Of a stretch of DNA of 64,000 nucleotides, positions 52,586 through 52,712 are shown piece after piece. The translations under genes were made by a program, and so were the position numbers. How positions within the stretch are numbered: position 1 is the stretch's first letter; each line of letters begins with the position of its first letter. The stretch is taken from NCBI RefSeq assembly GCF_057098645.1, contig NZ_CM169472.1. One strand, given 5' to 3'. Below the pieces are notes generated by a model that worked only from the letters and a program-made list of their open reading frames with translations, was not told the DNA's origin and searched no databases.

Positions 52586-52712
52586 ATTAAAAACGATATC
52601 CTGCTGAGAACATAAACACCCACGGATCGAGGCGTACGCTATCATGTTGCTGTGCACCGCCCAGTTTATAATTGGCGGTGGTATCGATATCCATGTACCA
52701 CACTGGTAGATT
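52586..52712 (-). pseudogene. ompW: 3' terminal fragment of ompW (last about 39 codons), displaced by prophage integration
   Basis: minus-strand translation ...VWYMDIDTTANYKLGGAQQHDSVRLDPWVFMFSAGYRF-stop matches the OmpW C-terminus; homology stops near 52704 and an in-frame stop lies just upstream. Confidence 0.8.

Follow-up and report, generated by a model that had tools for sequence, protein, structure and literature searches.

The DNA analysed here, referred to as the window, is the whole stretch of 64,000 nucleotides from contig NZ_CM169472.1 (assembly GCF_057098645.1). Five host genes, trpB, trpA, yciG, yciF and yciE, are arranged in this order on its plus strand. Past yciE and the terminator hairpin that follows it lies a short minus-strand remnant of ompW, and beyond that remnant prophage genes continue to the end of the window (Table 1). 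The minus-strand fold of the hairpin at 52551..52573 reaches -16 kcal/mol (ViennaRNA). The minus-strand ORF at 52587..52703 encodes 38 aa plus the stop codon, with the translation (V)WYMDIDTTANYKLGGAQQHDSVRLDPWVFMFSAGYRF, and matches positions 175-212 of the 212 positions of the NCBIfam OmpW equivalog (E = 1.4e-16). Besides this 3' fragment no further ompW sequence was detected within the window, and the displaced fragment is a pseudogene remnant, not a gene.

Table 1. Features identified around the ompW junction, with their position in the window, strand (a dot for features assigned to neither strand) and the basis of each assignment.
Feature	Position	Strand	Basis
yciE, last host core gene ahead of the junction	52021..52527	+	ORF; annotated in the identical RM13514 sequence and in K-12
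Terminator hairpin common to the convergent yciE and ompW, host DNA	52551..52573	.	Terminator scan: 10-bp stem followed by a T-run on the plus strand
121-bp imperfect att (core through ompW stop plus TT), as defined by Nakamura et al., 2021	52585..52705	-	
Host-derived ompW 3' fragment (38 codons, stop and 2 nt), pseudogene remnant at attR	52587..52705	-	ORF 52587..52703; RM13514 counterpart annotated as incomplete OmpW by PGAP
Perfect 28-bp common core CAGTGTGGTACATGGATATCGATACCAC	52678..52705	-	Same in attB (K-12), attL, attR and attP
Dyad GTGGTA(12 nt)TACCAC inside the core, candidate core-type integrase sites	52678..52701	.	Inverted repeat
P arm of the former attP	52706..52840	-	Matches phage 204576 attP left of the core; similarity then ends
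CTGCAAAAC motif, candidate arm-type integrase site in the P arm	52825..52833	-	Conserved in phage 204576 attP
attB-in-PP_1, unoccupied, 21 bp, secondary attB of yecE-type Stx phages ('prophage-in-prophage')	53013..53033	-	Exact match
ykgJ/ecpE-like segment, candidate attB-in-PP_2	53219..53393	-	71% identity over 203 bp to the K-12 ykgJ-ecpE region
NleG-like (DUF1076) type III effector gene, exchangeable effector locus	53853..54503	-	ORF; DUF1076 protein at L001 45875..46525 in a 99.9%-identical stretch
espM1, WxxxE type III effector	56010..56600	-	NCBIfam T3SS_WxxxE_eff, E = 1.2e-55; annotated in RM13514
nleG effector gene	56785..57432	+	ORF; annotated in the 99.9%-identical RM13514 stretch
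IS2, 1331 bp, 5-bp target duplication, strain-specific	57937..59267	-	Break in the RM13514 alignment with a 5-bp overlap
Truncated lom (Ail/Lom family), cut by an IS256-family remnant	60806..60991	-	RM13514 annotation; weak OmpX/Ail-family match
Tail tip gene J, 5' end past the window	61059..64000	-	977-aa ORF to the window end; gpJ is 1157 aa in RM13514

The same gene order is found in K-12, where ompW and yciE are convergent and spaced exactly as in the window. When the yciC-ompW-yciE region of K-12 was compared with the window by BLAST, a single match was returned (98.8% identity, window 51946..52705), and K-12 homology stops at 52705, where the att core has its first base. A preliminary description of this DNA, made from the sequence alone, had let the core synteny of yciE and its terminator end at an ompW C-terminal fragment and had placed the break at about 52704; the first point agrees with the ORF and the K-12 gene order, and the second proved right to one or two bases. 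Its statement that the sequence turns AT-rich past the junction stands locally, as the first 125 bp (52706..52830) have a GC content of 24%, but not at the kilobase scale, where no GC step exists at the junction (yciGFE ~42.6%, prophage arm ~43.2%). The effector genes, IS elements, lom and J that it had listed past the junction were all recovered, as the NleG-like gene, espM1, nleG, several IS remnants, a truncated lom and J, and the last of these runs off the window end, in line with the expectation of prophage genes past 64 kb.

Attachment sequences were compared by a four-way alignment of the K-12 attB, the attL and attR of RM13514 and the window, together with exact comparisons. The window and the K-12 locus each have a single copy of the 28-bp core, and the RM13514 locus has exactly two, one per prophage end; such a junction is far beyond chance. 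Over the wider 121-bp att, attR is identical to the K-12 attB at 119/121 positions and to attL at 96/121, and the same 121-bp repeat is labelled 'duplication due to insertion of PPompW' in GenBank LC567822.1. To the left of the core, host ompW continues at attL and unrelated AT-rich phage DNA is found at attR; to the right, the sequence is of the host type at attR and a diverged ompW-like copy at attL. Since attR is host-type and attL phage-type on one and the same side of the core, strand exchange can be placed inside the 28 bp. The comparison with an uninterrupted ompW-yciE region that the preliminary description had proposed for delimiting the core therefore returned 52678..52705, and on sequence comparison the host/prophage boundary in the window is set to the base, at 52705/52706. 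The dyad within the core has its half-sites at 52678-52683 and 52696-52701; GTGGTA and TACCAC are likely to be the two core-type integrase sites that flank the overlap region, the exact extent of which inside the core we infer from the sequence.

The other end of such a prophage can be followed in close relatives. The 2 kb across the junction are 100% identical in at least 21 complete genomes among the matches listed, mostly of serotype O145:H28 (RM13514, RM12581, RM13516). RM13514 (O145:H28) carries a contiguous prophage of ~42.5 kb, with the core at positions 5160 and 47673 of the extracted locus (L001). Its host/int end shows yciC, a full-length ompW (212 aa, no pseudogene flag), an integrase gene on the opposite strand (L001 5324..6454, adjoining the attL core copy), an excisionase and an exonuclease. 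Immunity, replication and Q regions follow, then tRNAs, terminase, head and tail genes, and finally the right end with J, truncated lom, IS remnants, nleG, espM1, an IS630 remnant, the DUF1076 (NleG-like) gene and an IS3 remnant; last before yciE stands a pseudogene annotated "OmpW family, incomplete, missing N-terminus". This prophage is defective, as it lacks lysis genes between Q and terminase and has a frameshift in the portal gene. The integrase of RM13514 consists of an Arm-DNA-bind_1 domain (PF09003, lambda type, E = 1.6e-21), a central and a catalytic domain. In the yciC-ompW intergenic region of RM13514, just upstream of ompW, RefSeq annotates a pseudogene fragment of a 'YkgJ family cysteine cluster protein' (L001 4311..4400). 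That region is 97% identical in K-12 and is therefore host DNA; no nucleotide similarity was detected between it and the K-12 ykgJ-ecpE region.

In the nomenclature of lambda the J/lom/effector end present in the window is attR, and the arrangement of the PPompW GenBank records (attL repeat, then int) leads to the same name. The proposal that the window holds the right attachment site of a lambdoid prophage in the ompW 3' end is thus borne out, the end being the J/lom-proximal one and the core being found at both ends in RM13514. A second ompW 3' copy, in direct orientation, and an integrase, which had been predicted to lie beyond the window together with a reconstituted ompW, are found in RM13514 with an excisionase, ~42.5 kb further on in relatives that are 100% identical at the junction, and the ompW 3' segment is indeed duplicated at the two prophage ends there. 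For the strain of the window itself, attL, int and the reconstituted ompW would be present and contiguous, judging from these closest relatives.

An uninterrupted attP was found in CP025907.1 (Escherichia phage 204576). It starts with ~135 bp similar to window 52706..52840, followed by the 28-bp core. Past the core come the diverged ompW-like 3' end, identical to that at attL, three tandem copies of CTCTGCAAAAC, a hairpin with a 12-bp stem and a T-run, and the 3' end of int. The similarity between phage 204576 and the window ends just past the CTGCAAAAC motif of the P arm. Over the 50 kb of the RM13514 locus this 9-mer was found only four times, with all copies pointing the same way: a tandem triplet in the P' arm and a lone copy in the P arm. 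Four copies were reached in 0/100 shuffles. The tandem CTCTGCAAAAC triplet of RM13514 is located at L001 5283..5317, between the stop codon of the phage-borne ompW end and the end of int. Because the integrase carries an arm-binding domain, the CTGCAAAAC copies are good candidates for arm-type sites, and we consider them candidate integrase arm-type sites in both att arms.

Type III effector genes lie between the tail fibre genes and attR, the arrangement of an exchangeable effector locus. An NCBIfam search of the NleG-like proteins gave no matches, and their names are taken from the RefSeq annotation of RM13514. J and lom are oriented so that the late genes lead to the attR end, as in lambdoid phages. 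The IS2 at 57937..59267 contains ORFs of 136 and 301 aa, whose aligned matches are annotated as 'IS3-like element IS2 family transposase'. It separates nleG from the lom/IS256 remnant; RM13514 lacks it, and an IS2 at this position was found in 0/5,426 complete E. coli genomes. Four IS families (IS3, IS630, IS2 and IS256) are present in ~8 kb of the effector arm, and a frameshifted remnant of an IS256-family transposase interrupts lom after ~60 codons (60244..60991). Identity to RM13514 amounts to 97.4% over lom/J (59268..64000) and 99.9% over the effector arm (52400..57936), a difference that points to a recombination event in the tail region involving another lambdoid prophage.

The effector arm also carries landing sites for other phages. 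The 21-mer GTCATGCAGTTAAAGTGGCGG has a single exact, uninterrupted match in the window, with 0 expected by chance, at a distance of 308 bp from the ompW core. Its sequence was given as attB-in-PP_1 by Nakamura et al. (2021; PMC8112680), who described the integration of yecE-type Stx2 phages there. A further secondary site, attB-in-PP_2, has been described as a 96-bp sequence that adjoins attB-in-PP_1 in PPompW and is ~81% identical to the ykgJ/ecpE intergenic region (Nakamura et al., 2021). Two ykgJ/ecpE-like segments were detected in the window (53219..53393 and 55830..55992), with ~71% identity to the K-12 region over 164-203 bp; one or both of them may correspond to attB-in-PP_2.

Taken together, the feature in the window is almost certainly the attR of a PPompW-type, lambda-like prophage integrated in the 3' end of ompW. 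On this reading, a tyrosine integrase of the lambda type joined the phage attP to an attB within the 3' end of the gene, with strand exchange inside the 28 bp that both share (window 52678..52705). The final 38 codons of the original ompW stayed attached to the yciE terminator and ended up at the J/lom/effector end, as seen in the window. At attL, the 5' 174 codons would be fused via the core to a diverged, phage-borne 3' end and the phage hairpin, so that OmpW would stay full-length (212 aa) in lysogens with seven substitutions, and int and xis would come directly after it. The arm beside attR is an exchangeable effector locus with genes for an NleG-like protein, EspM1 and NleG; it is strewn with IS elements and carries secondary attB sequences at which other phages can integrate.

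It is quite improbable that this attR, though genuine, has been parted from its attL/integrase end by prophage inversion or recombination, or by tandem or nested phages lying in between. Such an arrangement would agree with the mosaicism signalled by the unequal identities of lom/J and the effector arm to RM13514, and prophage inversions as well as tandem or nested prophages are known at the ompW locus, inversions between the prophages at ompW and ydfJ having been reported in some strains (PMC8112680); moreover, the strain of the window is not among the 5,426 complete genomes, and its far end is deduced from relatives. Against it, the RM13514 prophage is simple and contiguous over its ~42.5 kb, close relatives align colinearly to the window arm save for the IS2 (89% of the query, in two pieces), and attB-in-PP_1 in the window is unoccupied within an arm that is colinear with that of RM13514, again save for the IS2. 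An accidental origin, in which the ompW fragment would be the leftover of an IS-mediated deletion or illegitimate recombination that happened to abut prophage DNA, could appeal to the many IS remnants of the neighbouring arm, but it has next to no probability and is effectively excluded because the junction has no IS end, the 135 bp beside the core correspond to the P arm that an independent phage record shows in an intact, free attP, an exact second copy of the core is located at the integrase end, the same junction occurs in 382 genomes, and excision to attP was shown experimentally (Nakamura et al., 2021).

Integration at ompW by a PPompW-type prophage is widespread. Among 5,426 complete E. 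coli genomes, the uninterrupted ompW-yciE site was found in 3,435 (63%) and an occupied attL, in which ompW continues into the phage 3' end and an integrase of the same family is present, in 1,714 (32%), while the very junction of the window is shared by 382. PPompW was named by Nakamura, Ogura, Gotoh and Hayashi (2021, PLoS Pathog 17:e1009073; PMC8112680; GenBank LC567818-LC567841), who found it in 44% of 767 complete genomes of 92 serotypes. They confirmed the 121-bp att by sequencing attP, obtained by PCR from circles excised upon mitomycin C treatment, and reported that the PPompW copies of O145:H28 are not packaged (PMC8112680). An insertion in the same gene was also described for OI-57, a part of CP-933O in EDL933, under the name yciD (ompW) (Carter et al., PMC9144400), and these two reports agree with the claim of the preliminary description that ompW is a known prophage target. 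The P-EibA prophage record ends in an ompW fragment too. The ompW site, the 121-bp att, the effector-carrying defective prophage and the secondary attB sites are therefore already published and experimentally confirmed, and what the present work adds are the candidate arm-type sites CTGCAAAAC and the unoccupied secondary attB at 53013..53033.

The window shares with the PPompW of STEC and EPEC the integration site, the 121-bp att, the effector locus, the 21-bp attB-in-PP_1 and the O145:H28 background, and the integrase matches the PPompW records with 100% identity over int/xis. It differs by the extra IS2 at 57937..59267, by a lom/J region ~2.6% diverged from RM13514, and by an attB-in-PP_1 without an inserted Stx phage. 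OI-57/CP-933O of O157:H7 EDL933 occupies the same site, and in O157:H7 H76 attL is 100% identical and in strain 493/89 attR is 99.8% identical; however, OI-57 in EDL933 is listed with 80.5 kb against the ~42.5 kb of RM13514, and its content differs. Similarities with phage lambda, which integrates at the gal-bio attB, include a three-domain integrase with an arm-binding domain, an xis adjoining int, the position of attL at the int end and of attR at the J/b-region end, the dyad symmetry of the core, and candidate arm-type repeats in both arms. In contrast to lambda, the target of PPompW lies inside a gene, whose replacement 3' end is carried by the phage; the identical core measures 28 bp within 121 bp of imperfect homology, and the candidate arm motif CTGCAAAAC shows no relation to that of lambda. 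The identical core of lambda measures 15 bp. As in other temperate phages that integrate in the 3' ends of tRNA or protein genes, the gene is rebuilt at attL and its original 3' end is left at attR, but in PPompW the replacement is non-identical and changes seven residues of OmpW.

This replacement was studied in RM13514, where the final 29 codons of ompW at attL (L001 5160..5280), together with the stop codon and a hairpin, come from the phage. Apart from N185K, L188S, G190V, A191T, Q192T, Q193V and H194K, the chimeric OmpW does not differ from the crystallised K-12 protein (2F1T, 2MHL). The phage and host 3' ends differ at 25 nt, 22 of which fall within the ~46 nt encoding the substituted stretch, and in the last 47 nt of the phage-borne end there are three differences, all synonymous. 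Behind the reconstituted gene the consensus scan found no terminator, only the hairpin, which has a 12-bp stem and a T-run and which folds at -17 kcal/mol over a stretch of 69 nt (ViennaRNA). The last strand of outer-membrane barrels ends with a C-terminal Phe at the periplasmic rim. Members of the OmpW family are eight-stranded barrels with long extracellular loops, short periplasmic turns and the N-terminus at the periplasmic end (PMC2993939). Because the substituted stretch is located 18-27 residues from the C-terminus, the known topology of the family probably places the seven substitutions at the extracellular tip of the last beta-hairpin (S7-L4-S8). This placement was derived from the family topology and from the identity to the crystallised protein, a single-sequence AlphaFold2 model being unusable (pLDDT 28). 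We also considered that the substitutions block colicin S4, and this was downgraded, the contacts known from the literature (D116/H117/E120) being situated in a different loop of OmpW.

The value of the locus lies mainly in annotation, and little of it in discovery, although it offers two footnotes that can be tested cheaply, namely the non-identical C-terminal hairpin of OmpW and the repeated CTGCAAAAC motif of the two att arms. For the lineage, the empty landing site for Stx phages at 53013..53033 bears on the acquisition or duplication of Shiga toxin phages. As to the phage-borne ompW 3' end, we regard it as unlikely that it acts in lysogenic conversion of a surface protein rather than as a neutral repair patch. 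If it did so, an altered OmpW epitope or receptor surface would be displayed by about a third of E. coli genomes, and sensitivity to OmpW-dependent phages, bacteriocins or antibodies could change.
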